From NCBI GenBank assembly GCA_016185545.1, contig JACPNJ010000006.1, forward strand, positions 1 to 61,014: 61,014 nt of DNA. Direction: 5' to 3'. Under the pieces are notes generated by a model. The model had not been told where the DNA came from. It did no database searches and saw only the letters and a program-made list of their open reading frames with translations. Position 1 is the first letter of the stretch. Every line of letters begins with the position of its first letter. Position numbers and translations under genes: made by a program. Origin of the DNA: Candidatus Yanofskybacteria bacterium (GTDB lineage Bacteria; Patescibacteriota; Minisyncoccia; 2-02-FULL-40-12; IGHO2-01-FULL-4-A). Shown piece after piece: positions 5,673 to 44,962 of the stretch.

Positions 5673-6377
5673 ATGAGGCTTCCACACAAAACTCTTGAAA
5701 AAAAATTATTTGCGGACGGTTATCGCCATGTTATTGGCATAGATGAAGTTGGAATGGCTTGTCTGGCCGGACCTGTTTATGTTTGCGCGGTTTTGTTTAC
5801 TAAAGAATTTTTCGAAAAACCACATAAAAACCTGATCGGCTTGCGCGACTCCAAACAACTCTTACCGCATCAACGCGAAAAATTTTATGCCGAACTTATA
5901 AAAGAAGAGGGGATTAAGTACCAATTGGCTTCCTGCAATCCGAAAACAATAGACAAAATTAATATATATCAGGCGGCAAGGTTGACAATGAGAAGAGCCG
6001 TGAACAAACTAGGCGTCAGGTGCCAGGTGTCAGGTGTCAGAAAATCAAAACAAAAAAATTTTTACCTGAAACCTGTAACCTGCAACCTGAAACCTGCCGT
6101 TGTATTGGTTGATGGCAAGACTCCCATTAACGGTCTAAATCTGCCTCAAATGGCAATCGTGAAAGGCGACCGCAAGATTTTTGCTATTGCCTGCGCCTCT
6201 ATTATAGCCAAGGTTACCAGAGACCGCGTTATGTCACACCTTGCCAAGCGCTACCCCCAATACGGTCTTGAAAAACATAAGGGCTACCCAACCAAACTGC
6301 ACAAAGCCATGCTCATCCAACACGGTATTTGCGAAATACACAGAAAGTCTTTTGCACCAATAACTAAACTGCTATAA
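5673..6377 (+). CDS. rnhB: Ribonuclease HII, with a 29-codon in-frame heptamer-array insertion
   Basis: GIDEVGMACLAGPV (catalytic DE), VLVDGK, and IACASIIAKVTRD..YGLEKHKGYPT..H. Confidence 0.9.
   Translation: MRLPHKTLEKKLFADGYRHVIGIDEVGMACLAGPVYVCAVLFTKEFFEKPHKNLIGLRDSKQLLPHQREKFYAELIKEEGIKYQLASCNPKTIDKINIYQAARLTMRRAVNKLGVRCQVSGVRKSKQKNFYLKPVTCNLKPAVVLVDGKTPINGLNLPQMAIVKGDRKIFAIACASIIAKVTRDRVMSHLAKRYPQYGLEKHKGYPTKLHKAMLIQHGICEIHRKSFAPITKLL
6011..6097. repeat. Heptamer-periodic inverted array inside rnhB
   Basis: Sequence is aggcgtc aggtgcc aggtgtc aggtgtc ag, then an A-rich loop, then acctgaa acctgta acctgca acctgaa acctg. It is 87 nt (29 codons) with no stop. Confidence 0.9.
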
Positions 6378-14000: not shown

Positions 14001-14380
14001 AGGTCGCCTTAATTCAAGAAACGGATAAGATTGACAAAAGCGGCGGCGCAATCAATCTTATGACAATACATTCGGCCAAGGGCTTAGAGTTTCCGATTGT
14101 ATTTATCATTGGTATGGAAGATGGCATCTTCCCGCACTCGCGCGCCTTATTTGAGCCTGCGGAACTTGAGGAGGAAAGGAGACTTTGTTATGTCGGTATC
14201 ACTCGCGCCAAAGAACAGCTTCATCTGACCTATTGCCGAGAACGTATGTTTTATGGTTCTACTCAACTCAACCCGCCATCCAGATTTTTATTTGAAATCC
14301 CGGAACATTTGTTAAATTACTCGCCGCTTAGCCAAAATAAATATACGGAGGATTGGGACGATAAAATTGAGTACTATTAA
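11036..14380 (+). CDS. pcrA: ATP-dependent DNA helicase PcrA/UvrD, interrupted by an intein in the Walker A motif
   Basis: The exteins read AGAGSGK|T RALTHRIAYM, TFTNKAA, IDEYQDTN, DDYQSIYSFR, NYRS, IHSAKGLEF and YVGITRA. Confidence 0.9.
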   Translation: MNFMENIENSKIFADLNDKQIEAVRAIEGPVLILAGAGSGKCVSGDTLIFTGAGIIPIEEIPLHFGVSSQNDCSAPILSHHLNGSFSIKNTSHWFRFPKTKVIKISTKSGYQITGTYEHPLLVLNREGELEFKKLRDLKNGEVVAISKNNNIWGNYNLHPEIAYLMGLLVGDGYLGFKSGIGFAQVSENLIKAFKNILKKFFQIQVAKIKSRERYPAGNKRRSTTHYVYNMALKRELEGLGLKMVGSHHKSIPQSVLTAPKDSAKAFLQGLFDTDGSVSGATVELTTASETLAKQVHVCLLNFGIRASLRPKFVKSYRNNTYWRIAIMGTSLRTFAAEVGFRYQDHKIEKLQAIANKVSNSNVEVIPFQNLNIKHFKDRYLLGTEIYDGKYYYIFPETHNKIYIRDYLRRRRNPSPWQLERILKTAGNGARDPRVEYMFNLTRNFFFDPVVEVAREKEKIIVYDFTVPKNHTFVGNGFINHNTRALTHRIAYMIANNIPPQNILAVTFTNKAAGEIKERVVKLLSETQPKTYDLKPITSPSPWLGTFHSICLRILRHDIKTLPPYTENFVVYDEDDQLGLIKNVMRELELDIKKFNPKNVLGRISALKSELIGYEEFTEKAREYFEKIVAPVYTGYQITLQQNNALDFDDLIMLCVRLFQKHPEILEKYQNLFRYILIDEYQDTNHSQYVWVNLLAQKHRNLFVIGDDYQSIYSFRLANIRNILDFEKDYPEAKIILLEQNYRSTGNILAAANNIIIKNKNQKHKKLWTENSAGDEIILKEAANERREGDYVIETVRNNLKQGRGLQDFTILYRTHAQSRAIEEAMIKHGLPYRILGGVKFYQRREIKDILAYLRLAVNPNDLISWSRIYNVPGRGIGQTTWQKIKEARKLNIAETIKNITLESSIGQKQTIALKLLAKFIEELSQKSAELSPSQLIKYILQKTNYELYINDKTTDGEERWENVKEILTATRKYDSETAPNGLQKFLEEVALIQETDKIDKSGGAINLMTIHSAKGLEFPIVFIIGMEDGIFPHSRALFEPAELEEERRLCYVGITRAKEQLHLTYCRERMFYGSTQLNPPSRFLFEIPEHLLNYSPLSQNKYTEDWDDKIEYY
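11159..12481 (+). mobile_element. Intein (441 aa) with LAGLIDADG homing-endonuclease domain, inserted between K and T of GSGKT
   Basis: It starts CVSGDTLIF, has block B TGTYEHPLL, endonuclease motifs LMGLLVGDGYL and FLQGLFDTDGSV, and ends VGNGFINHN followed by +1 Thr. Confidence 0.85.
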
Positions 14381-15211
14381 ATGAGCTTAGCCACTCAAAT
14401 AAAAAATGAGTTAAATCAGCTTGGTATCAAACCCAAAAAATCGCTTGGGCAGAATTTTCTTATAAATGAGGGGATCTACAAAAAAATATTGGATATTGCG
14501 CAGATTAGACCGAGCGAAACAATTTTGGAAATAGGGGCTGGCCTGGGCACACTCACTGAATATTTAGCTCGCGCCGGAGGGAAAATTTTAGCCGTTGAAA
14601 AAGATAGGAATCTTGTGGCTTATCTTAAAGATCGTTTTCGGGATTATAATAATATTAGCACTGTAGAAGCTGATATTCTTAAAATCAAGCCTTCGGAATT
14701 AGGGCTGGAAGAAAAAAATTACAAGCTAGTCGGAAATATACCGTATTATCTGACATCGCATTTGATAAGAACGGTTTTTGAAAATTGGCCGTGGCCAAAA
14801 GATATTATCTTGATGGTACAAAAAGAGGTCGCGCAACGGATTGTTACTGAACCGCCGAATATGAATTTACTCGCGGTATCGATTCAATATTATGCCCGAA
14901 CGGAGATTGCTGGCATGGTTTCAAAGGGAAATTTTTGGCCTCAACCTAAAGTTGATTCTGCTATAATAAAGATAACTCCAAAAACCGAAATACCAGAGGC
15001 CGTAGAAACAGAAAGGTTTTTTAGAGTATTGAAGGCAGGATTTTCCGGCACAAGAAAACAACTTATAAATACTTTGTCGGGCGGATTAAAATTATCTAGG
15101 AAAACAGTAAGCTCAAAGCTCCTTTCGCTAGGTATCGCCACACAAAGACGCGCTGGAACATTGACTTTAGACGAATGGCAAAATATCGCTACTACGCTCT
15201 TGCCGCGTTAA
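14381..15211 (+). CDS. rsmA: 16S rRNA (adenine1518/1519-N6)-dimethyltransferase
   Basis: LGQNFL, EIGAGLGTLT, and GNIPYY. Confidence 0.9.
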   Translation: MSLATQIKNELNQLGIKPKKSLGQNFLINEGIYKKILDIAQIRPSETILEIGAGLGTLTEYLARAGGKILAVEKDRNLVAYLKDRFRDYNNISTVEADILKIKPSELGLEEKNYKLVGNIPYYLTSHLIRTVFENWPWPKDIILMVQKEVAQRIVTEPPNMNLLAVSIQYYARTEIAGMVSKGNFWPQPKVDSAIIKITPKTEIPEAVETERFFRVLKAGFSGTRKQLINTLSGGLKLSRKTVSSKLLSLGIATQRRAGTLTLDEWQNIATTLLPR

Positions 15212-16899
15212 GCGGCTTGCTCTTGTCCCTTGCCTATTCGGGTTGGAGTTTTGATTTGGGCTGGCTGGTCTGGATTGGATTTGTTCCACTTTTTTGGTCG
15301 TTGGCCCAAATCGTTTCCGAATACGAACATACTCGGAAACGATTTGGATTTTTGATAGGGTTCATCGCAGGACTTGTTTATTTTTTGATAATTTTCCGCT
15401 GGTTTTGGTCTATCTATCCGCTGGATACACTTGGCATTGAAAACCGTTCTATCTCCTTCGTCGCTGTTCTGCTTGTTTATCTGATTAGCTCTGCCGGAAT
15501 GGCAGTGTTTTGGGGACTTTTTGGAGCAGGTTTCAGGTTTCAGGTTTCAGGTTTCAGGTTTCAAAATGGATCAAGCACCTGGCACCTGGCACCTGGCACC
15601 TGGCACCCTTTGTTAATACTTTCCGCCCTATTCGTCCTGTTTGAATATCTCCGCTCCTGGGGTTTCGGGTTTTTGTGGGCCGGTTCCAATTCGCTTTTTG
15701 GCCCGCATTGGACATTGGGCAATCTGGCTTATGCTTTGGCCGATAATCCATTGGCGCTCAAACTCGCTTCGTTTGTTGGCGTCTATGGGGTTACTTTTGC
15801 GATTATTTTTATAAATTGCCTAATTTTTATAATTTTAAAAAAAAGGACTTATCTTGTAACCACAAGAATAGTCCTTGTGGTTTTGATACTTTTATTGGCT
15901 ACCTTTGGAACCAGGTTAATTAAATTTACGGCCACGCAGCAAGAAAAAAGTAAACAAGTTAACTTCGCCATTATACAAACCGCCCGGCCAACCAAAGTTT
16001 TGCCAAGTCCTCAAGAAACCTTGGCCGATCTCAAAGAACAGCTTGAATTACTTGACCGTGTCGCCAAAGAACATCCCGAAAGCCAGCTTATCGTTTTCCC
16101 CGAAACAAGCGACCTATTTAAAAATATCGCCCTGTTTTTAACCCCAGTGCAAGCCCAGGAATATTTTAGCAATCTTTTTGAAGATCCGAAATTAATAATT
16201 GCCGGCGGTAGAGTTATTGATTCCAATAGCAGTGCCTACTCACGTGTTTTCGATCTTAATACACAAAACGGCATTATCAACTATTATGATAAGCGTCTTC
16301 TAACTCCAGGCGGTGAATTTTTGCCTTACCCGGTAAAATTAATCGCTTGGATATTTTCAAAAACCACGGCCAATCAATTTGACAGCTTGCGCGAATTAAA
16401 TGTTGGCGTTAAAGATGTCTCAACTGTAAACTTCCGCGACCAATTTAAGGTAGCACCGATGATTTGTTCTGAATTGCTATCACCGAGTTTAGTCAAACAA
16501 ACTTCCCAAAGTTCAGATGTAATCGTCAGTATGGCAAGTTATGGAATTTTTCACGGAAATCCTGTTATAGCAAAGCAGATGCTTGCCACTACACGCTTCA
16601 GAGCAATAGAGAACACCAAACCAGCCGTTACCGCCGCTAATTTGGGACGCTCTTATGCAATAGACAGTCGAGGAAAAGTTGCTTATTTAGCCGCAAACTC
16701 CGATCCGCAGATATTAACAGGTTCTATTGTGCTAGGTTCCGGTAAATCGTGGTATAATAGAGTAGGCGATTTGCCAATAATTTTGGTATCTTTGCTATTG
16801 ATGGTCCTAGGGTTCAGGTTACAGGTGTCAGGTTACAGGGGAAGAATAAAATCTTGGTTATGGAGGAACCAAGAAATTAAAAATGGTAAATTCCTATAA
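15175..16899 (+). CDS. lnt: Apolipoprotein N-acyltransferase with heptamer-array segments
   Basis: Polytopic N-terminal half, then a CN-hydrolase domain (AIIQT.., VFPETS, APMICSEL). Confidence 0.8.
   Translation: MAKYRYYALAALSGLLLSLAYSGWSFDLGWLVWIGFVPLFWSLAQIVSEYEHTRKRFGFLIGFIAGLVYFLIIFRWFWSIYPLDTLGIENRSISFVAVLLVYLISSAGMAVFWGLFGAGFRFQVSGFRFQNGSSTWHLAPGTWHPLLILSALFVLFEYLRSWGFGFLWAGSNSLFGPHWTLGNLAYALADNPLALKLASFVGVYGVTFAIIFINCLIFIILKKRTYLVTTRIVLVVLILLLATFGTRLIKFTATQQEKSKQVNFAIIQTARPTKVLPSPQETLADLKEQLELLDRVAKEHPESQLIVFPETSDLFKNIALFLTPVQAQEYFSNLFEDPKLIIAGGRVIDSNSSAYSRVFDLNTQNGIINYYDKRLLTPGGEFLPYPVKLIAWIFSKTTANQFDSLRELNVGVKDVSTVNFRDQFKVAPMICSELLSPSLVKQTSQSSDVIVSMASYGIFHGNPVIAKQMLATTRFRAIENTKPAVTAANLGRSYAIDSRGKVAYLAANSDPQILTGSIVLGSGKSWYNRVGDLPIILVSLLLMVLGFRLQVSGYRGRIKSWLWRNQEIKNGKFL
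15528..15607. repeat. Heptamer-periodic inverted array inside lnt
   Basis: (aggtttc)x4-5, loop aaaatggatcaag, then (cacctgg)x3-4. It is translated as FRFQVSGFRFQ..STWHLAPGTWHP. Confidence 0.9.
16809..16840. repeat. Heptamer array, left arm of the cassette enclosing four-helix-bundle gene 1
   Basis: Sequence agggttc aggttac aggtgtc aggttac aggg, located in the last codons of lnt. Confidence 0.85.
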
Positions 16900-17239
16900 G
16901 GATTTGACTGTTTGGCAAAGGTCTCTCGAGTTAGTCAAAGAAATTTATAAAACAACTAGATTTCTACCAAAAGATGAAATTTATGGTTTAACGAATCAGA
17001 TGAGAAGGGCAGCAATATCGATACCTTCTAACATAGCCGAGGGACATCAAAGAAAAAATCTAAAAGAATATCTGCAATTCTTGAGAATATCTTATGGCTC
17101 GGCTGCAGAGCTAGAAACACAGCTTATTATTTCCAAAGAAATATATCCACGCATAGATTTTTTGACAGCGGAGTCGCTTCTTAAGGAAGTTCATAAAATG
17201 TTAAATACTCTGATCCAGAAACTTGAATTAAAATTTTAA
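16883..17239 (+). CDS. Four-helix-bundle protein (23S rRNA intervening-sequence protein family)
   Basis: Family signature Y.DL.VWQ....L...IY......P..E.YGL..Q.RRAA.SI..NIAEG.....K.....F..I..GS..E..T. Confidence 0.85.
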   Translation: MVNSYKDLTVWQRSLELVKEIYKTTRFLPKDEIYGLTNQMRRAAISIPSNIAEGHQRKNLKEYLQFLRISYGSAAELETQLIISKEIYPRIDFLTAESLLKEVHKMLNTLIQKLELKF

Positions 17240-17270
17240 CCTGAAACCTGATCCCTGAAACCTGTAACCT
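17239..17270. repeat. Heptamer array, right arm (inverse units) of cassette 1
   Basis: Sequence acctgaa acctgat ccctgaa acctgta acct, starting in the stop codon of the four-helix-bundle gene. Confidence 0.85.
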
Positions 17271-17302
17271 TCTGCTAGCGGGAGGCTAGCGGCATACAAA
17301 AC

Positions 17303-18289
17303 ATGAACATGAAATTAAAAATAATCCTGGGAGCATTGCTACTTATCGCCGGCTTTCTTGTTGTCCGGCTGGGTTTGTTTTTTAAACATAGCGTCCAAAC
17401 GGCGACAACGGCAAACATTGGGAATCAAATCGCCGGGGTGAATGAAACAAACTGGTCTGCCGTGGATACCGACAGTGACGGCATCCCGGATGCAAACGAA
17501 GCCTACTACCGGACCGACCCCTTTAATTCCGATACGGACAGCGACGGCTATCTGGATGGCGAAGAAATAATTTCCGGTTTTAATCCCACAAGAAAAGAAA
17601 ACCCAACCGAACGCAATAAACAAACCGGAAATTTAACCAATTCCTTGGTCCAACACATAGCAACTGGCATTTATACCGGTGATTTAAGCCCAAAAATTGG
17701 TGAAAGCCAATACGAAAAAAACCTAAATCTTCTGACGCTGGGCACAATTAATGAAGCGATAGATTTGTTAAACCCACCGCTTATTTCTGATGCCAGTTTG
17801 GTTATAGTTGGCAAATCAAAACAATCACAAGAAGAATATCTGACCAATACCGCCTCATTACTGGAAGGCCCGTTTTTGAATTCGTTCATGCAGCAGGGGC
17901 AAGTTTTAAGCCAAGCGGCTAATTTTATGGTCGGATTTAAATACACCGAGGCCACTGAAATTTTCAAAAACTATTATTTAACCTTCACGAATGCCCACAA
18001 CCAGCTACTGACCGTTTCGGTGCCGGAAAATTGGGTTAATTTTCATAGACACCTGCTAGCGATTTTCCAAAAAATGGCTCTGAATTACCGTTCACTCACC
18101 CAGATAGCCAATGACCCGCTTTTGGCTATAACGGCCTTGCAAAATATCCCAAACAATCTGCTAGAAATTGATTCATCTTTAATTCAAGAACTCAGAATTT
18201 TAATCCAAAAAGAAAATTTAGAAATACCCAATTCATCTCTTTTTGATGTTTTGGATCTGTTAAATACCAATAAAACCCGTGATAACTAA
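17303..18289 (+). CDS. Membrane-anchored secreted protein with thrombospondin-type-3-like Ca-binding repeats
   Basis: N-terminal transmembrane segment, plus DTDSDGIPDANE and DSDTDSDGYLDGEE motifs. Confidence 0.6.
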   Translation: MNMKLKIILGALLLIAGFLVVRLGLFFKHSVQTATTANIGNQIAGVNETNWSAVDTDSDGIPDANEAYYRTDPFNSDTDSDGYLDGEEIISGFNPTRKENPTERNKQTGNLTNSLVQHIATGIYTGDLSPKIGESQYEKNLNLLTLGTINEAIDLLNPPLISDASLVIVGKSKQSQEEYLTNTASLLEGPFLNSFMQQGQVLSQAANFMVGFKYTEATEIFKNYYLTFTNAHNQLLTVSVPENWVNFHRHLLAIFQKMALNYRSLTQIANDPLLAITALQNIPNNLLEIDSSLIQELRILIQKENLEIPNSSLFDVLDLLNTNKTRDN

Positions 18290-19388
18290 TAACTGGACAA
18301 AAGCAATCTTAAGTCTCGTCGTTATTGGCTTTTTGGTCTTGTATCCCGTTCATTCCGCCCGTTCGGTCGGGGCTATTATGTATGTCCTCAAAGAATTCGG
18401 CCTGGACCTCATAGCCAGAGTAATTGGCAGAACTTTTTTGACTAAGATGATCAATAGCACTACGGATTTTTTAAGCAAGAACGGCAGAGACGGCCTACCC
18501 AATTTCGTGCAGGATTGGCGGAGTTTTCTTCAGGAAGCACAATACAGAGGCGAAGACATAACAAGAGCGACAATCGGTGAGGCTATAAACAATAATGCGA
18601 TATGCGATTACCTTAAAAGCCCGCTTGCCAATGCTTTCGGCGCTTTCGCACAATCAGGTTTCAGCGCCACCAAACATAGGGTTGACTCACTTCAGTATTA
18701 CGCACTTCGTAACAGATGTACTCTGCCTGTAGGTTTCAATGTAAATACATTTAGAAACGACTTTTCCGTAGGCGGTGGTTGGGCAGCTTGGGATAAACTA
18801 ATCCAGCCACAGAATAATTTTTTCGGAGTTTACGCCGACTCCCTGGACGAACTGGAAAAACAAAGAAGTTTTGAAGAGAGAAGGGACCGCAGTGAAGCTG
18901 AAGCTGGTAGCGGTTTTACTTCAAAGACGGGCGGGAAAGAGGGCGGCTGTGAGATTAGATCGCCGGGAAATGTAGCCTGTTTGGTTCTCGGTCAAATACA
19001 AACACCATCCAAGATACTAGGAGAGATCGGGAGCGATTTAAACACTGGTGAATTTGACTGGCTGACTAGTTGCGATGAATTAAGCGAATGTTTGATCTCT
19101 GCCACCACTTTCGTACTTAACAGGTTGGGTAACTTTACGGGCGCAGGTTCACGTGTTAGCGAACCTCCGCCAGCGGATACATCTTTTGGTGATGCGGCAA
19201 AAGATGAAGTGTTTAATGATTGCGTCAAATCCAAAGAGGCGGGGTGCGTAGAGAAAGCCAAGAGGTTAGAGTGTACTACCTTCACCTCTCCGGATGGTAC
19301 GACAACAGAAGATTGTGTAGAGATAATAGATCAGGGAATTTTTAACGTTTGCATGGATGAAGCAAGAAGAATTTGCACGGTTCAATGA
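18279..19388 (+). CDS. Hypothetical secreted cysteine-rich protein
   Basis: N-terminal transmembrane segment or signal and many Cys in the C-terminal half. It overlaps both neighbours, suggesting an operon. Confidence 0.55.
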   Translation: MITNNWTKAILSLVVIGFLVLYPVHSARSVGAIMYVLKEFGLDLIARVIGRTFLTKMINSTTDFLSKNGRDGLPNFVQDWRSFLQEAQYRGEDITRATIGEAINNNAICDYLKSPLANAFGAFAQSGFSATKHRVDSLQYYALRNRCTLPVGFNVNTFRNDFSVGGGWAAWDKLIQPQNNFFGVYADSLDELEKQRSFEERRDRSEAEAGSGFTSKTGGKEGGCEIRSPGNVACLVLGQIQTPSKILGEIGSDLNTGEFDWLTSCDELSECLISATTFVLNRLGNFTGAGSRVSEPPPADTSFGDAAKDEVFNDCVKSKEAGCVEKAKRLECTTFTSPDGTTTEDCVEIIDQGIFNVCMDEARRICTVQ

Positions 19389-21661
19389 GCAAAAAAGGTA
19401 ATAAATTTGGTGTGCTATTAGCCGTAATTATTTTACTGGCCGTTTTTGTTCCGCAATATCAGGCAAGAGCTGATTTGTTTGATATAGGTAGTATTGCCAG
19501 TGGGGCAGTGGCGAAAGTGGTGGGTTATATAAATACCCTTTTACTTGGCTTTCTAGGAGAAGTTATATCATATTTTGCACAGCTTATTGAAGAGTTTATC
19601 ACGCTTCAAACCAACGGCGGCATTTATAATGTTGCCATAGTCGATGGGAGTTGGACCATTATTAGGAACTTCGTAAACTTATTTTTTATTTTAGCTCTAA
19701 TAGTAATGGCATTCGGCACAATATTTAATATTCAAAGATATACTTGGAAAAATATGCTGGCCCCTTTTTTAATAGCCGCTCTTCTCATAAATTTCAGTCT
19801 GACCATAGGGCAATACATCATTACGGTCGCCAACGGTTTGGCTACTGTTTTTTTAAGAGAAATGCAAGACCCGCAGGTGGGAGGTATAGCAGCAAATTTT
19901 CAGAATGGATTTAGTAGCGCAAAAATAATAACAAGCGGTACAACAAGTATTAGCGCTTTACAAGCAATGGGCGATGCCGCCGCGGGTATCGGCAGTGTTG
20001 TTCTTACCCTGATTTTTTCTGTTATATTTTTAGCGGCTATAGCATTGGCATTTATCGCAACGGCTATTTTTTCAATCGTGAGATTATTTATGCTTTGGTT
20101 TCTTTTAATCATTTCCCCGATTGCCTGGTTTGGTTATACGATGCCTAATTTGAGAAGTGGGACATGGAGCGCCTGGTGGAAGCAATTCTTATGCTGGTGT
20201 TTTTTCTTGCCATATTTTCTATTTTTTATGATGTTCGCGGTTAGTTTCATTAAAAACAAAGGTTTAATATCCCTACCCTCGACTCTCGGACGCATATCGG
20301 TGGCTGGTATGACTGGAAATGATTTTGTATTTTATTTATTGAGTTTAATATTCCTCTTCGGCGGAATGGCGATTGCACATAAACTTGCTTGCGCGAGCGG
20401 CACGGGGGTAAAAGCGGTATTCGGCAAGATTGAAACCGGGGTGCGCAAATACGCCCCCGGAGCGGCTTATGTCAGGGCCACATATACTGGCGCGAAAGAA
20501 GGATTGGCGGCTAAAGGCGCGGAAATAAAGGAAAGGGGGATGCCAATCGGTTTTGGCCGCCGGGTTGGCGGAGAACAGGCTGAACGTTTACGAACCGCCC
20601 GGGTAGCTGAAGCATTCGGTATGGGCGCGAAAGTCGGAGAAGCCGGGAGAGTGCAGATGGCCGAAATTGAAAAAGAGGCCAAGAGAGTTCGTGAACAGTT
20701 ACTAAGAACGCCAGCTGATCAGCAAAAATCCTTTTTGGAATCATCGCGTTCCCAAAAAGGAGTAATCGGTCAAGCAGCAGCCCTTGAGTACGTTAAGCAA
20801 GGATATTCAACACTAGCTGATTATCAGGAAGCTGTTAAAAAATTTGGCGACGAAAACAGCGCCTTCATGCGCCAATACTTGGAAAACCTCAAACAAGCCA
20901 AGCTTAGTGATCTGTTTAAGAGTCCGGACGCGGAATTGCGTATCGCCAGAGGCGAGGCAGAAGAAACTGTGGGTTTGGTCAATCTTCGCCGCGAACTTTA
21001 TAAAGACCTCGCTAAGAGAAATCGAATTAATAATACGGCCGATTATAATCAAGCAAAGGAGATTTTGTCGCCAATCCCAGCCGAGTTAAGGTCTTTCTTG
21101 GATTCAGTCAAAGCAGAAGCGATATTTACTACAAGAGAACAAAGACAGGATGCGCTTTTGGATTCCACTAATAAGATCGGGGATGCCGATTTGGAAAAGA
21201 AATTGGTTGAATTTATGAAAGAAAAGAAGGAAATAACCGACTTCAGGAAAAAGGACACCAAAGAGCTCGTAGCGGCTGGCTGGCAATTACGCGAAAAGGC
21301 GTTGGAAATTTTGGGCGGCAAGGAAACATTTGACGGCAAAGGCTTAATTAAAGAAATAAATAATTATAATCCGATTATTAACATTGAGGCCGAGATGAGA
21401 ACGGCGCCAGGAGCTAAGCCATTCCTGGACAATGAAGAACTAATAAGCAAGCTACAGGAAGAACTCAAGGGCAAGTCTTACGCCGACATAAGAAAGATGT
21501 CCGGTAAATTCTTTGAGGACCCGGCGGCCCAAGAGGCAATAAAGAGAATGTACGACCCGAAAGAAATAGCGGACTTAATTAAGAATTCATCGCAAGAAAT
21601 GAGAAGAGCGCTAAAAGATTTTGCCATATCGGAAGAAAAAACTAAAAGAAGTCGCACGTAA
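19373..21661 (+). CDS. Polytopic membrane protein, VirB6/TrbL-like, with long charged C-terminal domain
   Basis: Signal-like N-terminus and about 7-8 hydrophobic segments over the first 350 aa or so. It sits upstream of the PrgI-like and VirB4-like genes. The family call is inferred from topology and context, not motifs. Confidence 0.5.
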   Translation: MHGSMSKKGNKFGVLLAVIILLAVFVPQYQARADLFDIGSIASGAVAKVVGYINTLLLGFLGEVISYFAQLIEEFITLQTNGGIYNVAIVDGSWTIIRNFVNLFFILALIVMAFGTIFNIQRYTWKNMLAPFLIAALLINFSLTIGQYIITVANGLATVFLREMQDPQVGGIAANFQNGFSSAKIITSGTTSISALQAMGDAAAGIGSVVLTLIFSVIFLAAIALAFIATAIFSIVRLFMLWFLLIISPIAWFGYTMPNLRSGTWSAWWKQFLCWCFFLPYFLFFMMFAVSFIKNKGLISLPSTLGRISVAGMTGNDFVFYLLSLIFLFGGMAIAHKLACASGTGVKAVFGKIETGVRKYAPGAAYVRATYTGAKEGLAAKGAEIKERGMPIGFGRRVGGEQAERLRTARVAEAFGMGAKVGEAGRVQMAEIEKEAKRVREQLLRTPADQQKSFLESSRSQKGVIGQAAALEYVKQGYSTLADYQEAVKKFGDENSAFMRQYLENLKQAKLSDLFKSPDAELRIARGEAEETVGLVNLRRELYKDLAKRNRINNTADYNQAKEILSPIPAELRSFLDSVKAEAIFTTREQRQDALLDSTNKIGDADLEKKLVEFMKEKKEITDFRKKDTKELVAAGWQLREKALEILGGKETFDGKGLIKEINNYNPIINIEAEMRTAPGAKPFLDNEELISKLQEELKGKSYADIRKMSGKFFEDPAAQEAIKRMYDPKEIADLIKNSSQEMRRALKDFAISEEKTKRSRT

Positions 21662-21677
21662 TTAGCATAACTACCAC

Positions 21678-22256
21678 ATGCCGCTAACTCATCAAAAATA
21701 TCTTCAATATAGCCCATTTTTTGTAGACGCTACGGAGATGTCTGATTTGGATTGGGAAAGATTAAATACGAAAATAGACAAAATACCACAAACTTTAGCT
21801 GACTTTTTGGTTGATATTAAGGTTTCCGAGTTCATAGACGCCTTAGCCCAAAAATATATCCAACTCTCGGTGCAGGGACCGGATATGGCTAGGTTGATTA
21901 GGGATGTGGTGATCAGGGATATTTTTATCGGCGACATACCAAAGGAAATTTCAGATCGGCTGGGAGTTGACCAAACCCTCGCCCGCGAGATTGCAAATTT
22001 AATCATCTCCCAGCTTTTTACGCCGATTATTGAAGATATAAAGAAAGTACAGAACGAAAGGTATCCGGGTAGATTGCCCGCCCAATCACAGGTTTCAGGT
22101 GTCAGGGTTCAGGGTTCGGGGCAAAGCGGGCAAGATCCCAAACCAGTAGCGCCACCCTCCTACGCCAAGGCTTCGGAGGGCACAGCAAAGCATTATCAGG
22201 GCGAAGAGTTACCAGAATCAGGCGGTAATATTATTGACTTGCGAAGCAAGTCATAG
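21678..22256 (+). CDS. Hypothetical protein with heptamer-array and GC-hairpin segments near its C-terminus
   Basis: 192-aa ORF. Its C-terminal third is low complexity (QVSGVRVQGSG.., PPSYAKASEG) and is encoded by repeats. Confidence 0.5.
   Translation: MPLTHQKYLQYSPFFVDATEMSDLDWERLNTKIDKIPQTLADFLVDIKVSEFIDALAQKYIQLSVQGPDMARLIRDVVIRDIFIGDIPKEISDRLGVDQTLAREIANLIISQLFTPIIEDIKKVQNERYPGRLPAQSQVSGVRVQGSGQSGQDPKPVAPPSYAKASEGTAKHYQGEELPESGGNIIDLRSKS
22090..22121. repeat. Heptamer array (single arm) inside ORF 21678-22256
   Basis: Sequence aggtttc aggtgtc agggttc agggttc gggg. Confidence 0.8.
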
Positions 22257-22292
22257 GTTATAGGTTATAGCTGATAGCTGATAGGTGATAGC
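22255..22292. repeat. Heptamer array, left arm of the cassette enclosing four-helix-bundle gene 2 (AGGTTAT/AGCTGAT flavour)
   Basis: Sequence aggttat aggttat agctgat agctgat aggtgat agc. It begins within the TAG stop of the upstream ORF. Confidence 0.85.
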
Positions 22293-22339
22293 TTTAAAAA
22301 TGAGTTCTAGAAATAAGGAGGCTAGGACGCAAATAAAAA

Positions 22340-22705
22340 GTGGATAAAATTCATTCGTACAGAGATTTAGTGGTATGGCAAAGGTCCATTGAGCTAGTTA
22401 TAGAAATATACACGCTAACTGATAGGTTTCCGAAAGAAGAAATTTACGGACTAATTTCGCAATTAAGGAGAGCTGCCGTTTCAATCCCTTCTAATATCGC
22501 CGAAGGCAGGTATCGTGGGACAAGAAAAGATTTTAGGCAATTTCTTCTTAATGCTTACGGCTCTGGCGCTGAAGTTGAAACACAATTGGTTATTGCAAAT
22601 AAATTGCCGAAAACAAAAAATTTAAATTATGTCAGAGCAAATAAAATTCTAGATGAAGTAATGCTAATGTTAAATTCACTAATCAAAAAATTGGAAACTT
22701 CTTAA
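22340..22705 (+). CDS. Four-helix-bundle protein (23S rRNA intervening-sequence protein family), second copy (GTG start)
   Basis: YRDLVVWQRSIEL..IY..FPKEEIYGLISQLRRAAVSIPSNIAEG..FL..AYGSGAEVETQL. By eye it is roughly half identical to copy 1. Confidence 0.85.
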   Translation: MDKIHSYRDLVVWQRSIELVIEIYTLTDRFPKEEIYGLISQLRRAAVSIPSNIAEGRYRGTRKDFRQFLLNAYGSGAEVETQLVIANKLPKTKNLNYVRANKILDEVMLMLNSLIKKLETS

Positions 22706-22736
22706 CTATAACCTATGACCTATAAGCTATCACCTG
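22706..22736. repeat. Heptamer array, right arm of cassette 2
   Basis: Sequence ctataac ctatgac ctataag ctatcac ctg. It starts 1 nt after the stop and ends 4 nt before the next ATG. Confidence 0.85.
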
Positions 22737-22740
22737 CACC

Positions 22741-23046
22741 ATGAGATTCCAAGTCCCCCAATTCATAGAAACGGAAACCAAAATCGTCGGGCCATTCACG
22801 TTCAAGCAATTTTTGTTTCTGGCCGTTGGGGCGGTAATAATTTTTATCCTGCAATATGTAATCACCAGTTTTACTTTTTTAATAATTGTGGCTCTGCCGA
22901 TTGCTGCCTTATCCATTGCGCTTGCGTTTTACCGGATAGATGGCATACCCTTGCCGCAATACTTATTGATGGCATTATCATATGCGACGGGGGCGAAAAG
23001 ATACCAATTCACTAAAGAAAATAAGCAAAATTATTTGCAAAAATAG
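22741..23046 (+). CDS. PrgI-family (VirB3-like) small membrane protein
   Basis: N-terminus MRFQVPQFIETETKIVGPFTFKQFLFL followed by two transmembrane segments. It lies just upstream of VirB4-like genes. Confidence 0.7.
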   Translation: MRFQVPQFIETETKIVGPFTFKQFLFLAVGAVIIFILQYVITSFTFLIIVALPIAALSIALAFYRIDGIPLPQYLLMALSYATGAKRYQFTKENKQNYLQK

Positions 23047-23114
23047 GTTTCAGGTTACAGGTTTCAGGTTACAGAAAATTAAACCTGACACCTGACACCT
23101 GACACCTGACACCT
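23045..23114. repeat. Heptamer-periodic inverted array (stop-to-start)
   Basis: Sequence aggtttc aggttac aggtttc aggttac ag, loop aaaattaa, then (acctgac)x4 acct. It overlaps the TAG stop at 23044-23046 and ends at the TTG start at 23114. Confidence 0.9.
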
Positions 23115-23755
23115 TGCCCACACCGCCCAAAAACCAGTCCACCAAAGATTTCGTAGAAATCGCGGACATCCGCGAGAGTGTTGCGGTCTTAAAAGATGGG
23201 TCTTTGCGTTCTGTTATTGAAGTTGGTTCAATGAATTTTGAGCTTAAGTCAGCCGATGAACAAATGGCAATAATAAGCGCTTTCCAGAATTTCCTGAATT
23301 CCATTGATTTTCCGCTTCAAATCGCCGTTAATTCGCGTAAATTAGAAATCGGACCATATATGAAGTCGCTTAATGAACTGACCCAGAGCATTTCCAATGA
23401 ACTTATGAAAATCCAGGCCATTGAATACACGCGTTTCATCAAAGGACTAACGGAACTTGCCAATATAATGTCAAAAAAGTTTTATATTGTCGTTCCGCTG
23501 TATATTGTGGAAACGATCGGCAAGGGAGAACAGGGAACTGGAATTTTAGGCGCTTTCAGAAGCGTGGTTAGCCCTTCCAAATTCACTAAAACCCTCACTG
23601 ATCAAGAATTTGAAAATTATAAAACACAACTTAGTCAAAAAAACCAGTTTGTCATGGACAGCATCAGCGGATTAGGCATTGAAACGCGGATATTGGGAAA
23701 AGAGGAGCTAATGAATCTTTATTATTCTTATTACAATCCGGGACATCAATTATAA
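23114..23755 (+). CDS. VirB4/TraE-like protein, N-terminal domain fragment (TTG start)
   Basis: DFVEIADIRESVAVLKDGSLRSVIEVGSMNFELKSADEQMAIISAFQNFLNS resembles the N-terminal region of Gram-positive VirB4-type ATPases. It is in the same reading frame as 23894-25618. Confidence 0.6.
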   Translation: MPTPPKNQSTKDFVEIADIRESVAVLKDGSLRSVIEVGSMNFELKSADEQMAIISAFQNFLNSIDFPLQIAVNSRKLEIGPYMKSLNELTQSISNELMKIQAIEYTRFIKGLTELANIMSKKFYIVVPLYIVETIGKGEQGTGILGAFRSVVSPSKFTKTLTDQEFENYKTQLSQKNQFVMDSISGLGIETRILGKEELMNLYYSYYNPGHQL

Positions 23756-23760
23756 AAAGA

Positions 23761-23830
23761 AGGTGTCAGGTGCCAGGTTTCAGGTTACAGAAAATCACAC
23801 CTGACACCTGACACCTGACACCTGACACCT
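23761..23830. repeat. Heptamer-periodic inverted array between the two VirB4 parts
   Basis: Sequence aggtgtc aggtgcc aggtttc aggttac ag, loop aaaatcac, then (acctgac)x4 acct. Confidence 0.9.
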
Positions 23831-23893: not shown

Positions 23894-25618
23894 ATGTTGG
23901 ACGATATCTTGGCTCCTTCGGCGATTGATATTTCTTCCAACTATCTGCAAATAGGCGATACTTACGCCCGCACTTTTTTCTTAGCAACTTATCCGAGATA
24001 TCTAAATACCAACTGGTTTTCTCCGATTGTTAATATGGATCGGCCTTTTGACGTGTCTATTTTTGCGCATCCGGAAAATACTGCCCAAATGCTCAAGCAG
24101 CTACGCGATCGGCTTGGCCGGCTTCAGGCTCAGGAAATGGAGGAACAAGCGGCCGGTAAAGTAAGAGATCCGGTGTTGGAAACGGCTATCGGCGACATTG
24201 AGGCGCTTAGGGATAAACTACAGCAAGGAACAGAAAGATTTTTTAGATTGGGAGTTTATATAACGATATACGGCGGTTCGCTAAAAGAACTTGATGATAC
24301 GGAAAATAAAATCAAGTCAATTCTTGACGGTCAGCTGGTTTATTCAAAACTAGCAACTTTCAGAATGAAAGAAGGATTTTTCTCAACCCTGCCGCTTGCC
24401 GACGACCAGCTTCAGGTCCATAATTCATTGAATACCGAACCGATTTCCTCGCTTTTTCCTTTCGTGTCTTATGACCTGACCACAGAGAAGGGAATACTTT
24501 ACGGAATAAATACTCACAATAATTCTCTGGTTTTATTTGACAGGTTTAGTATGGAAAATGCGAATATGGTGATTTTCGGAAAGAGCGGCGGCGGTAAATC
24601 ATATGCCGTTAAATTGGAAATTCTCAGAAGTTTGATGTTTGGCACGCAGGTTTTTGTGATTGACCCTGAAAACGAATATAAATTCCTATCTGACACTGTA
24701 GGCGGCACTTCCATTAAAATATCCATCACCTCACCGCACCATATCAATCCGTTTGATCTGCCCAAGCCGTTACCCGATGAAAGTCCGGCTGACGTTTTAC
24801 GTTCTCATATTATTAATCTAATGGGTCTTTTTAAGCTCATGCTGGGAACGCTTACGGCGGAAGAAGAGGCGATTTTGGACGAAACCATAAATCAAACCTA
24901 TGCCATTAAGGACATAACGCCCCAAACGGCCGATTTGAAAAACGCCGTGCCACCGTTGATGTCGGATTTTCAAAATGTTTTAGAGGGCATGGCCGGCACG
25001 GAATCTTTGGTCATCAGGATTAAAAAGTATACTGAAGGTACATTTGCCGGTTTTTTGAATAATCCGACCAACGTTGAGTTAAATAATCAGCTGATAGTTT
25101 TCGGCATTCGCGACATGGAAGAAGAACTGCGCCCGATTGCCATGTATTTGGTGCTCAATTTTATTTGGACGCAAGTCAGAACAGAGTTGAAAAAACGTAT
25201 TTTAGCCGTGGATGAGGCGTGGGTATTGATGAAATACGAATCCGGAGCGGCATTTTTGTTCAATATAGCCAAGCGTGCACGCAAATACTATTTGGGTTTA
25301 ACAACAATTTCCCAAGATATTCCGGATTTCATGGCTTCGCCGTACGGCAAACCGATTGTTACCAATTCATCCCTGCAGTTGCTATTAAAACAATCGCCGG
25401 CATCAATCGACTTGGTTAAACAAACATTCAACCTGACAGATGCGGAAAAATTTTATCTTCTGGAATCGCGTGTGGGTCACGGTTTGTTTTTCGCCGGCAT
25501 CAATCATGTGGCCTTGCGGGTGATAGCATCATACGCTGAAGATCAGATTATTACCTCTGACCCAAGACAGATATTGGAAATAGAGGAAGCTAAAAAAGAA
25601 CTAGCAAAGCAAAGTTAG
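23894..25618 (+). CDS. VirB4-like type IV secretion ATPase, C-terminal (NTPase) part
   Basis: Walker A FGKSGGGKSY and Walker B ILAVDEAW, followed by TTISQD. The upstream region (NTNWFSPI.., FDVSIF) is typical of VirB4 middle domains. Confidence 0.8.
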   Translation: MLDDILAPSAIDISSNYLQIGDTYARTFFLATYPRYLNTNWFSPIVNMDRPFDVSIFAHPENTAQMLKQLRDRLGRLQAQEMEEQAAGKVRDPVLETAIGDIEALRDKLQQGTERFFRLGVYITIYGGSLKELDDTENKIKSILDGQLVYSKLATFRMKEGFFSTLPLADDQLQVHNSLNTEPISSLFPFVSYDLTTEKGILYGINTHNNSLVLFDRFSMENANMVIFGKSGGGKSYAVKLEILRSLMFGTQVFVIDPENEYKFLSDTVGGTSIKISITSPHHINPFDLPKPLPDESPADVLRSHIINLMGLFKLMLGTLTAEEEAILDETINQTYAIKDITPQTADLKNAVPPLMSDFQNVLEGMAGTESLVIRIKKYTEGTFAGFLNNPTNVELNNQLIVFGIRDMEEELRPIAMYLVLNFIWTQVRTELKKRILAVDEAWVLMKYESGAAFLFNIAKRARKYYLGLTTISQDIPDFMASPYGKPIVTNSSLQLLLKQSPASIDLVKQTFNLTDAEKFYLLESRVGHGLFFAGINHVALRVIASYAEDQIITSDPRQILEIEEAKKELAKQS

Positions 25619-25695
25619 GTTTCGGGTGTCAGGTTTCAGGGACCAGGTTAAAGAAAAATTTTCCCTGTAACCTGTAACCTGTAACCTGTAACCTG
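25617..25695. repeat. Heptamer-periodic inverted array (stop-to-start)
   Basis: Sequence aggtttc gggtgtc aggtttc agggacc aggttaa, loop agaaaaattttc, then (cctgtaa)x4 cctg. It overlaps the TAG at 25616-25618 and abuts the ATG at 25696. Confidence 0.9.
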
Positions 25696-35986: not shown

Positions 35987-36691
35987 TTACCGGTATTTCC
36001 GGTTTATATAAAGCTGTTCAAATATGGAAAAAGCCGTAGCGGTTACCCAATAAATGGTCAACCCGGCAGGTAAATTCCAAGCGATAATTATAACCATAAT
36101 CGGGAAAAAATACAACATCTGCTTACTCATTTGGAAAGTGGGAGAAGGAATCTCGTTTTTGGAAGCCGGGGCTTGAAAAGAAGCTGCTTTTTTTGATTGA
36201 AACCATTGTAAAATTCCGGCTAAAACGGCTAAAATGGCATTCTTTTGGGTAAGGTTAATGAACCCAAATGCAATTTGTTTTATAGCCACTGGATGACTTA
36301 CAAACGAATATAAAGCCGTAAGACTTTCGGGTTTTAATCCAGAATTTAATGCGCTATAAAGCGCAATTAGAACCGGAAGTTGTATAAGGAGCGGCAAACA
36401 GCCGCCAAACGGATTTACATTATGCTCCTTATAAAGGGCCATGGTTGCCTGACCCAGTGCTTGCTTGTCGTTTTTGTGTTTTTCCTGAAGCTCTTTGATT
36501 TTTGGCTGAAGCTTGCTTAATTCTTTTTGCGATACCAGCGCTTTAATTGATAAGGGTGTAAATACTAATCTAACTACGATTGTCAGTAAAATAATCGCTA
36601 CGCCAAAATCATTTCCAGGAACAATGTTGTAAATAAAAACCAAGAGGTTGAATAGGGGACGGAAGAGAAGTTCGTTGTATAAAAAACCCAA
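35987..36691 (-). CDS. yidC: YidC/Oxa1-family membrane insertase (TTG start)
   Basis: PL..KA..SQ.E...LQPKIKELQEK.K.D, NPFGGCLP.LIQ.P, and the conserved operon position. Confidence 0.85.
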   Translation of the reverse strand: MGFLYNELLFRPLFNLLVFIYNIVPGNDFGVAIILLTIVVRLVFTPLSIKALVSQKELSKLQPKIKELQEKHKNDKQALGQATMALYKEHNVNPFGGCLPLLIQLPVLIALYSALNSGLKPESLTALYSFVSHPVAIKQIAFGFINLTQKNAILAVLAGILQWFQSKKAASFQAPASKNEIPSPTFQMSKQMLYFFPIMVIIIAWNLPAGLTIYWVTATAFSIFEQLYINRKYR

Positions 36692-36693
36692 AC

Positions 36694-36766
36694 TAGGTTA
36701 TAGGTTATAGGTTATAGGTTATAGGTTTAAAATTTCTAACACCTATAACCTATCAGCTATCACCTG
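36694..36766. repeat. Heptamer-periodic inverted array (yidD stop to yidC start)
   Basis: (taggtta)x4-5, loop taaaatttctaa, then cacctat aacctat cagctat cacctg. The plus-strand right arm contains the yidD TGA, and the other end lies 2 nt from the yidC start. Confidence 0.9.
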
Positions 36767-36990
36767 ATTTCATATATTCCGCCTCTAGACAGCGGATTAC
36801 ATCTTAAAATCCTTGCCAGTCCTTTTAACACGCCCTTTACTACTCCCCATCTCTCAATCGCTTCATATGTATATTGCGAACAACTTGGATAAAAACGACA
36901 GCGCATACTGCCTCCGGCAAAAATGAACCCGTGGTCAGGCGAAATTGTTGCTTGATAAAATCTAATTATTTTTAAAAATATTTTTGTCAT
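36760..36990 (-). CDS. yidD: Membrane protein insertion efficiency factor YidD
   Basis: [13 protein letters not shown]...G..KG..L...RI.RCNP. Confidence 0.9.
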
Positions 36991-37322: not shown

Positions 37323-37328
37323 GCATTC

Positions 37329-37388
37329 AGGTTATAGGTTACAGGTTATAGGTTACAGGTTTTTTCTGACACCTGACGCCTGACACCT
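37329..37388. repeat. Heptamer-periodic inverted array (rpmH stop to rnpA start)
   Basis: Sequence aggttat aggttac aggttat aggttac aggt, loop tttttct, then gacacct gacgcct gacacct. Confidence 0.9.
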
Positions 37389-44876: not shown

Positions 44877-44887
44877 AGCGAATTTTA

Positions 44888-44962
44888 AGGTTTCAGTTTT
44901 CAGGGATCAGGTTTCAGGTACTAGAGAAGAACCTGTAACCTGTAACCTGTAACCTGTAACCT
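44888..44962. repeat. Heptamer-periodic inverted array (yebC stop to ruvC start)
   Basis: Sequence aggtttc agttttc agggatc aggtttc aggtac, loop tagagaaga, then (acctgta)x4 acct. Confidence 0.9.

Follow-up and report, generated by a model that had tools for sequence, protein, structure and literature searches.

A PF05635 gene between inverted heptamer arrays at a junction of a type IV secretion-like operon in a Candidatus Yanofskybacteria chromosome

A 61,014-nt stretch of a Candidatus Yanofskybacteria chromosome, hereafter the window, contains an operon resembling a type IV secretion system (T4SS). At one junction of this operon, between a 192-amino acid (aa) open reading frame (ORF; 21678-22256) and a PrgI-like gene (PF12666, E 3e-12), lies the element examined here, cassette 2. 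It consists of a small gene of the PF05635 family flanked by a heptamer array on one side and the inverse array on the other. A sequence-only reading had described it as a second, diverged four-helix-bundle gene set between heptamer arms and inserted in the middle of the operon. The window holds one other element of this kind, cassette 1, whose heptamers are of a different sequence variant, or flavour. The parts of the two cassettes are as follows.

22253..22293, + strand: left arm of cassette 2, about 5.6 heptamers with period 7 (ATAGGTT x2, ATAGCTG x2, ATAGGTG, ATAGCT); detected by Tandem Repeats Finder, which ends the array at 22291 or 22293
22304..22328, + strand: small hairpin GTTCTAG / CTAGGAC, the loop of which presents the Shine-Dalgarno AAGGAGG (22315-22321) upstream of the GTG start in minimum free energy (MFE) and centroid folds
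22340..22705, + strand: four-helix-bundle gene of cassette 2, PF05635 / TIGR02436, GTG start, 121 aa, ending in TAA, with motif RRAAVSIPSNIAEG
22706..22735, + strand: right arm of cassette 2, 4.3 inverse heptamers with period 7 (CTATAAC CTATGAC CTATAAG CTATCAC CT; Tandem Repeats Finder)
16811..17270, + strand: cassette 1, with left arm 16811-16839 (CAGGTTA/CAGGTGT flavour), a 118-aa PF05635 gene at 16883-17239 and right arm 17238-17270
16853-16873, + strand: cassette-1 counterpart of the small hairpin, CTTGGTT-ATGGAGG-AACCAAG, with the Shine-Dalgarno in the loop in MFE and centroid folds

Gene, arms and placement of cassette 2

The cassette-2 protein matches Pfam family PF05635 (23S_rRNA_IVP; 23S rRNA-intervening sequence protein) with E 1.3e-34 and 119 bits, against a curated cut-off of 33.8 bits, and TIGR02436 ('four helix bundle protein') with E 2e-34 and 117.9 bits, against a cut-off of 24 bits. 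The PF05635 match covers the full domain (residues 8-113, profile positions 1-106 of 106) and is the only Pfam match above its cut-off. The motif GxxRxxxSxxxNxxE, which is conserved in the family (PMC3936711), is present as YGLISQLRRAAVSIPSNIAEG in cassette 2 and as YGLTNQMRRAAISIPSNIAEG in cassette 1. The proteins of the two cassettes are 56% identical, as expected of diverged copies of one gene. By sequence similarity the nearest solved structure is Xanthomonas campestris XCC0516 (PDB 2GSC, E 2.6e-21), which was deposited with five chains. The PF05635/S23p family forms pentamers (PMC4990558), and family membership suggests that the cassette-2 protein is pentameric as well. An exact-sequence look-up returned no record for the cassette-2 protein. 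For the cassette-1 protein its only returns were contigs of the same strain with 100% identity to the window, which offer neither another genomic context nor copy-number polymorphism. PADLOC models gave no match at E <= 0.01 for either four-helix-bundle protein, for the 192-aa ORF or for p213, a downstream ORF of the operon (23114-23755), and a reading of the locus as a defence system was rejected.

PF05635 has a homologue in bAvd, a nucleic acid-binding pentamer of the four-helix-bundle fold (PMC10053308), and the gene might accordingly be read as an Avd accessory protein of a diversity-generating retroelement, with the repeats as part of that element. Weak matches to PF22296 (bAvd-like, E 0.005) and NF033474 (DivGenRetAVD, E 1e-4) point in this direction. 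However, the NF033474 score is 22 bits against a cut-off of 80, the PF22296 score of the cassette-1 protein is 17.7 bits against a cut-off of 40, and the cassette-2 protein does not match PF22296. The genes on either side are T4SS-like. Pfam or NCBIfam scans of 28 other ORFs in the window, a subset of the total, revealed no reverse transcriptase, and the region's repeats include no pair of template and variable repeats, the arms being tandem heptamers. The cassette protein thus shares a fold family with bAvd but lacks its partners, and with scores below the cut-offs and no reverse transcriptase among the scanned ORFs the retroelement reading was rejected as very improbable.

The arms fit tightly between the neighbouring genes. 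The stop codon TAG (22254-22256) of the upstream ORF lies inside the first heptamer, the right arm begins at the base directly after the TAA of the cassette gene, and the PrgI-like ATG (22741) is 5 nt past the right arm, or 4 nt, as first described, if G22736 is counted as arm. The best inverted pair joins 22262-22291 with 22706-22735 (30 nt, 83% complementary), and a 14-nt perfect pair is found at the outer end (22250-22263 with 22706-22719). Across registers the arms pair over 30-41 nt with 76-83% complementarity, giving cassette 2 the closing stem of an intervening sequence (IVS). In MFE and centroid RNA folds of both cassettes the arms pair across about 420 nt (z -2.6 and -4.0). Rfam contains no described RNA family over the cassette arms or the leader.

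Chance was an improbable source of the arrays. The motif AGGTNNNAGGTNNNAGGT, allowing at most one mismatch, has 57 matches in the window where 0.11 are expected from shuffles; all left arms match on the + strand and all right arms on the - strand. Together with the family-wide flanking arrays described below, these counts bear out the earlier argument that two occurrences of arm, gene and arm in the window were not a coincidence.

This anatomy is that of the IVS of 23S rRNA. In Coxiella burnetii an insert of 428-444 nt with an S23p ORF lies in helix 45 of 23S rRNA. It has a 28-bp terminal inverted-repeat stem that is cut by RNase III, and 3-4 tandem heptamers (GACAGAT) of strain-variable copy number at its 5' end. 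It is regarded as selfish, and as tolerated because the stem closes over the insert (PMC4990558). As in the IVSs of Leptospira, Coxiella burnetii, Brucella and the Xanthomonas type, the PF05635 ORF of cassette 2 lies in the loop of a long inverted-repeat stem. The location is different: IVSs sit in helix 25 or 45 of 23S rRNA, and cassette 2 is flanked by coding genes, the 192-aa ORF and the PrgI-like gene. Cassette 2 also differs in that both of its arms are whole heptamer arrays and in that its genome carries many gene-less copies. Cassette 2 therefore matches the published anatomy of a 23S rRNA IVS, outside rRNA. We consider it on balance probable that the feature is an IVS-type hairpin cassette, a PF05635 gene in the loop of inverted heptamer arrays, that was inserted at a stop/start junction of the T4SS-like operon.

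Related operons and gene-less hairpins

To examine the junction in relatives, 80 metagenomic loci with relatives of the operon's VirB4-like ATPase were recovered and mapped with the window proteins. In locus L082, the ATPase of which is 83% identical, the 192-aa ORF ends IIDLRNK TAA and the PrgI ATG abuts it ('AAG TAA ATG'), with neither arms nor gene. Locus L081 (ATPase 86% identical) carries a solo hairpin at the cassette-2 site, TAGTTTT CAGTTTA CAGCTTA CAGTTTA CAG - loop - (CAACTGT)n, and the upstream TAG is in the first heptamer as it is in the window. A second L081 hairpin, at the PrgI / p213 junction, is orthologous to window 23045-23114, and the other two junctions have none. Hairpins therefore occupy none of the operon junctions in L082 and L083, two in L081 and four in the window, so that occupancy rises with closeness of relationship; the window alone carries a gene in a loop. 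Because the junction is empty in L082 and holds a short-loop hairpin alone in L081, the cassette-2 gene and its arms are an insertion, and related genomes have the site either empty or occupied by the hairpin alone. The unit in both L081 hairpins is CAGTTTA/CAGCTTA, compared with YAGGTNN in the orthologous window hairpins. Heptamer flavour follows the genome, not the site.

In other lineages, three junctions of this operon carry divergent PF05635 genes, detected in a hidden Markov model scan: the one before PrgI (L138 and L144), the PrgI / p213 junction (L126) and the p213 / ATPase junction (L151). The inserts of L144, L126 and L151 have heptamer arms. These inserts, with the empty junction of L082 and the bare hairpin of L081, uphold the earlier view that the cassette had been inserted into the operon.

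A different insert was seen at the junction before PrgI in L087 (4197-5000). Here a single direct heptamer array (AATTCCT...) precedes about 650 nt of inserted minus-strand sequence, in which two small ORFs, judged by eye, resemble a hicAB toxin-antitoxin pair. A duplicated copy of the initial 75 nt of the PrgI gene flanks this insert.

The window holds about 11 heptamer hairpins. Two have a loop of about 420 nt that carries a PF05635 gene; the remainder have A/T-rich loops of 4-23 nt and no gene. The left arm always consists of (Y)AGGTNN repeats and the right arm of NNACCT(R) repeats, in arrays of 3.3-5.6 units as measured by Tandem Repeats Finder. The gene-less, or solo, hairpins are the following.

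23045..23114, + strand: PrgI / p213 junction, with the PrgI TAG in the first heptamer; the L081 ortholog is in its own flavour, and L082 and L083 have none
23761..23830, + strand: p213 / VirB4-like ATPase junction; none in L081, L082 or L083
25616..25695, + strand: VirB4-like / next-gene junction; the first heptamer contains the VirB4 TAG and the last abuts the next ATG (25696)
36694..36765, no strand assigned, genes on the - strand: between yidD (36760-36990) and yidC (35987-36691), in the cassette-2 flavour, TAGGTTA x5 / ACCTATAACCTATCAGCTATCACCT; the yidD stop is in one arm and the yidC start abuts the other
37328..37388, no strand assigned, genes on the - strand: between rpmH and rnpA
44884..44962, no strand assigned, genes on the - strand: between a yebC-like gene and ruvC
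6011..6097, + strand: in frame inside rnhB, aa 113-142 of ORF 5673-6377
15525..15609, + strand: in frame inside lnt, aa 117-145 of ORF 15175-16899

In the T4SS-like operon all junctions are filled, in the order 192-aa ORF, cassette 2, PrgI, hairpin, p213, hairpin, VirB4-like ATPase, hairpin, next gene. At 3/4 junctions the upstream stop is the TAG of the first heptamer, the exception being the TAA of p213 a few bases upstream of its array. At 3/4 the start codon is 0-5 nt past the last heptamer; at the p213 / VirB4 junction the ATG is about 60 nt downstream of the arm. Inspection of the sequence found no Shine-Dalgarno between the arrays and the next start codons at the junctions of this operon. 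On the minus strand, the rpmH/rnpA and yidD/yidC junctions likewise have the stop in the first heptamer and the start close after the last, without a Shine-Dalgarno. The yidD/yidC array at 36694-36765 had been singled out in the sequence-only reading, and its TAGGTTA / AGCTGAT flavour is indeed common to it and cassette 2. The AGGTG(AT) core of the left arm complements the 3' end that 16S rRNA usually has, and the right-arm CACCT resembles that end.

Hairpins are also found within genes. Besides the complete hairpins in rnhB and lnt, single arms lie in frame inside iscS (57639-57674), uvrD (12618-12650) and the 192-aa ORF itself (22087-22122), and the lnt ORF runs through the stop-free left arm of cassette 1, to 16899. 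The CAG flavour is free of stop codons in the sense frames and hence translatable, and in-frame hairpins and arms of this flavour would be translated, for example as LGVRCQVSGVRKSKQKNFYLKPVTCNLKPA in RNase HII. Profile alignments of the housekeeping genes with in-frame hairpins or arms show matching insertions of about 30 aa. In this genome, then, the element is mostly dispersed as hairpins without a gene, which occupy many operon junctions and in places even lie in frame within coding sequences. An AAAAT motif beside the left arm is common to the solo loops and the inner ends of both cassettes, which is compatible with solo hairpins being cassettes minus the gene.

On either strand the hairpins fit precisely between stop and start codons and leave no Shine-Dalgarno downstream; they could instead be a domesticated regulatory system that provides post-transcriptional punctuation at operon junctions, through mRNA stability or translational coupling, like the repetitive extragenic palindromic (REP) sequences and bacterial interspersed mosaic elements. 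The pentamer ring would wrap one arm, each subunit taking one heptamer, in the way that spaced (G/U)AG triplets are bound by the TRAP ring, and the hairpin of the protein's own gene would confer autoregulation. The array length in the window is in keeping with a family that is pentameric (2GSC, five chains; PMC4990558). A YAG triplet is found in most upstream-arm units across phyla, and the Shine-Dalgarno of both cassette genes lies in a small-hairpin loop. The close relatives L082 and L083, however, run the operon without hairpins, which makes them dispensable, and the in-frame hairpins of rnhB and lnt look like invasion. Arrays elsewhere are up to about 11 units long, some flavours, such as GGGAATC and TCGTATG, have no YAG, and the sense strand has no excess of G-U pairs. 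We regard regulation as an unlikely explanation of the hairpins.

Layout of PF05635 genes across phyla

To determine whether the gene-in-hairpin layout extends beyond the window, 80 homologue loci of 45-69% identity were taken from species genomes of Patescibacteria, Clostridia, Gamma- and Deltaproteobacteria, Acidobacteriota, Bacteroidota, Planctomycetota, Chloroflexota and others. An inverted-repeat score was obtained by local alignment of the 200 nt upstream of each gene with the reverse complement of the 200 nt downstream, and shifted positions in the same loci served as controls. The median score was 33 at PF05635 genes and 17 at controls (77 loci; Mann-Whitney p 4e-39), and 73% of the 77 loci exceeded the control 99th percentile. 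Among the 57 significant arm pairs the period is 7 in 45, 8 in 5 and 9 in 1, with a median arm of 31 nt and 87% complementarity. Between the upstream arm and the start codon there are about 25 nt, and between the stop and the downstream arm about 9 nt. Arrays reach about 11 units.

The heptamer unit varies by lineage (TAGTGGT, CAGTAGC, TTAGCTG, TAGGGGA, AAGTGAC, TCGTATG and others) and its polarity is fixed: upstream arms have TAG 134 times and CTA 22 times, and downstream arms the reverse. Where one genome has a second PF05635 copy (L030, L046, L069 and the window), each copy has its own flavour. The gene is co-oriented with its upstream neighbour at 65/75 loci and with its downstream neighbour at 61/73; by comparison, neighbouring bacterial genes in general share their orientation roughly 70% of the time rather than 50%. 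Gaps to the neighbours are about 65 nt, essentially the arms only. A four-motif scan for 23S rRNA adjacent to the 80 loci gave two weak matches, and Rfam found no rRNA at either. Gene-in-hairpin is therefore a family-wide property of PF05635 across phyla. An explanation of the period of 7 by stops in all three frames was only partly borne out: the arms close all three frames in 32/59 cases reading inward and in 15-19/59 reading outward, and the CAG-flavour arm of cassette 1 closes none.

Solo arrays track the gene. Those more than 300 nt away share at least four 6-mers with the arms of their own locus in 30% of cases, compared with 9.5% for the arms of other loci (p 1e-5). Solo arrays are also denser near PF05635 genes, with 0.78 per 10 kb (0.70 in the subset from the candidate phyla radiation, CPR) compared with 0.17 in the VirB4-centred CPR loci (p 1.5e-8 for all PF05635 loci, 1e-4 for the CPR subset), although both taxonomy and nearness to the gene confound this comparison. 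The density in the window is 2.4 per 10 kb.

The same arrangement is found in Xanthomonas campestris. There the XCC0516-type gene (P0019; L165 2424-2872) lies between accB and accC, interrupting a conserved pair. Upstream of it is GGGAATC GGGAGTG GAGAATC GGGAATC GG, and downstream is CCCATTC CCCATTC TCGACTC CCTATTC CC, which runs directly into the accC ATG. GGGAATC has 186 sites in this species and 70 convergent pairs able to form stem-loops (PMC4692102), and the genome-wide heptamer is thus the one that forms the arms of the XCC0516-type gene.

Flavours recur in places. A Desulfobacca metagenome-assembled genome (L071) has solo arrays of the window's flavour, CAGGTTT/TAGGTTT (2484-2516, 4868-4889), beside a cassette whose arms have a flavour of their own, CAGTAGC. 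Unrelated phyla can also have similar flavours, for example TTAGTGG in Thiohalocapsa (L022) and in Ruminococcus (L063). Either convergence or transfer may lie behind such recurrences.

One arm of a hairpin is often a 100% perfect array and its partner heterogeneous (15527-15607, 23045-23114, 23761-23830, 25616-25695, 44884-44962). By eye, no consistent pattern related the perfect arm to gene strand or to the dnaA-side origin. Such pairs, and arms that differ by unit, fit independent slippage, and they could mean that the hairpins are the only real element and the gene a passenger: arrays would arise by replication slippage at AT-rich junctions and their loops would capture small genes, with PF05635 as frequent cargo. 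The strain-variable heptamer copy number in Coxiella (PMC4990558) and the large excess of solo hairpins over cassettes are in line with this. Yet both gene-bearing hairpins of the window hold PF05635 genes, and so do all five operon-junction inserts, though these were found by a PF05635 search and other cargo was unsurveyed. Arms accompany 73% of homologues across unrelated phyla, each with its own heptamer, and the solo arrays that are 4-5 times denser near the gene have its flavour in common. Slippage alone leaves the inverse arrays on both sides and the genome-shared flavour unexplained. A passenger gene is, in our judgment, improbable.

Several observations weigh against an IVS-type cassette as well. 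In L138 the PF05635 gene before PrgI lacks clear arms, and significant arms are missing at about a quarter of homologues; moreover, the 80 homologue loci represent the top matches to the query and do not sample the family at random. Within a single hairpin, the two arms can show a consistent difference of 1-2 nt in each unit, as with CAGGTTT and CAGGTGC (15527/15575). Taken with the pairs of perfect and imperfect arms, this indicates that the arrays expand independently and that perfect pairing is not selected. Mismatches between arms carry no sense-strand RNA signature (54 G-U-compatible, 57 A-C-compatible), and arm complementarity looks as if it were kept at the DNA level or free of strand-specific RNA selection. 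Across 59 cassettes arm flavour is only weakly correlated with protein sequence (Spearman rho 0.06; Mantel 100/2000 permutations, p ~0.05), and arms are common only to proteins at least 70% identical. The covariation that the sequence-only reading had looked for is thus present in weak form. The specific recognition that it was to indicate is unsupported, as the correlation fits co-inheritance equally well. Finally, we know of no catalytic activity able to move DNA in a 120-aa helical bundle.

Two arrangements had been named in advance as arguments against a functional link between gene and arms, namely the gene without arms and the arms fused as an ordinary array with the gene elsewhere. Both occur, the first in L138, where the gene has no clear arms, and the second in L081, where the fused arms hold no gene. 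They leave the link intact, because gene-less hairpins are the commonest form in the genome and the family-wide statistics are strong.

Known systems and a possible mechanism

If cassette 2 is an IVS-type insertion, the arms would pair in the operon transcript and loop out the insert of about 480 nt. Pairing would rejoin the upstream stop and the downstream start, much as the IVS stem restores helix 45 of 23S rRNA, and would keep the tight coupling seen in L082. If the rRNA IVS is a guide, RNase III is likely to recognise the imperfect 30-40 bp stem as a substrate. RNase III excision is demonstrated for the Coxiella IVS and extends to the window cassette by analogy only; a cut here would free the four-helix-bundle mRNA and separate the flanking cistrons. 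The cassette gene would have no promoter of its own and would rely on the transcript of its host operon, with its own Shine-Dalgarno for translation. Reliance on the host operon fits the co-orientation at most loci.

The REPIN/RAYT system, or REPtron (PMC3116915), is the nearest functional analogy, though the cassette protein is not a transposase. As in a REPtron, or in a transposon with its MITEs (miniature inverted-repeat transposable elements), the gene is flanked by inverted copies of a repeat that is dispersed as gene-less hairpins, and the flavour is genome-specific. A RAYT (REP-associated tyrosine transposase) is an HUH/Y1 transposase of the IS200/IS605 type, whereas the cassette protein is a four-helix bundle of 120 aa. 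A REPIN is a fixed palindrome of 20-40 nt, whereas the cassette repeat is a tandem heptamer array, and mobility of the cassette is deduced from presence and absence alone. By this analogy, the solo hairpins would be gene-less derivatives, as REPINs are of the RAYT and MITEs of the transposon. The cassette protein is the best candidate for the factor that may recognise, maintain or spread hairpins of its own flavour, because its fold family is pentameric and because its retroelement relative Avd acts with reverse transcriptase on nucleic acid.

The Rickettsia palindromic elements are short palindromic repeats that lie in frame in housekeeping genes and are translated. The in-frame hairpins of rnhB and lnt are like them in this respect; they differ in their unrelated sequence, in having a heptamer array as unit and in their association with a specific small gene.

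Heptamer repeats have been described as GGGAATC in Xanthomonas, GGGGA(C/T)T (STRR-type) in Nostoc/Anabaena and TAACTGA in Beggiatoaceae. They are intergenic and tandem, often form convergent stem-loop pairs, and occupy conserved positions between ORFs, often beside start codons. They have been treated as G-quadruplex or translational signals (PMC4692102, PMC4679880), and a term search of both papers found no mention of a four-helix-bundle gene. Conversely, a PF05635 gene has been reported inside an operon, between cmr3 and cmr2, with no mention of repeats (PMC3936711). In the literature searched we found no paper that links heptamer repeats and the four-helix-bundle family generally, besides that on the Coxiella IVS, which is no proof that the link is unpublished.

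To our knowledge PF05635/TIGR02436 is a widespread small family without an assigned function outside diversity-generating retroelements. The data join three poorly understood phenomena: this family, bacterial heptamer repeats and rRNA intervening sequences. Cassette 2 alone is a non-rRNA variant of the IVS/S23p element, and the wider value lies in the family-wide nesting of the gene and the matching gene-less hairpins. We tentatively raise the possibility, which we hold to be less likely than not, that PF05635 proteins and inverted heptamer hairpins form a previously unrecognised bacteria-wide system. In such a system the protein would either maintain and spread arrays of its own flavour without a recognisable transposase, or employ them as the binding sites of a TRAP-like regulon located at operon junctions. 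A single mechanism would in that case lie behind the 23S rRNA IVS, the cyanobacterial STRR-type heptamers, the Xanthomonas GGGAATC repeats and the CPR hairpins at junctions and in coding regions. The places of insertion are those where a closing stem spares host function: a hairpin loop of rRNA, a stop/start junction, even an ORF. The question is testable in a tractable organism, because the XCC0516-type gene of X. campestris, whose structure is solved, lies in GGGAATC arrays between accB and accC.

The hairpins also have practical consequences: they break short-read assemblies, extend or interrupt ORF calls and remove the Shine-Dalgarno at operon junctions. Four contigs from four other sequencing runs (L161-L164) are 100% identical to window 15534-20239. 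Two of them start in or beside heptamer arrays (window 15534 and 16802), indicating that the repeats fragment short-read assemblies.

In other respects the window is an ordinary CPR/Patescibacteria-like chromosome, with dnaA, rpmH-rnpA-yidD-yidC, nusA, trigger factor, PBP1, ruvC, lnt and rnhB. In nusA (52529-53962) the match to the N-terminal domain takes up 180 residues for 119 profile positions, implying that about 60 aa have been inserted; a heptamer array was not detected at this place. A UvrD/PcrA-type helicase (11036-14380) contains an intein, with Intein_splicing at aa 89-482 and LAGLIDADG_3 at aa 265-340. Rfam matches in the window are limited to a 16S fragment (98-1391) and two tRNAs. 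The partial 16S rRNA gene (model positions 875-1387) is spread over 1294 nt, 98-1391, by an insertion of about 780 nt, and this insertion encodes a LAGLIDADG homing endonuclease (395-988; PF03161, E 6e-33).

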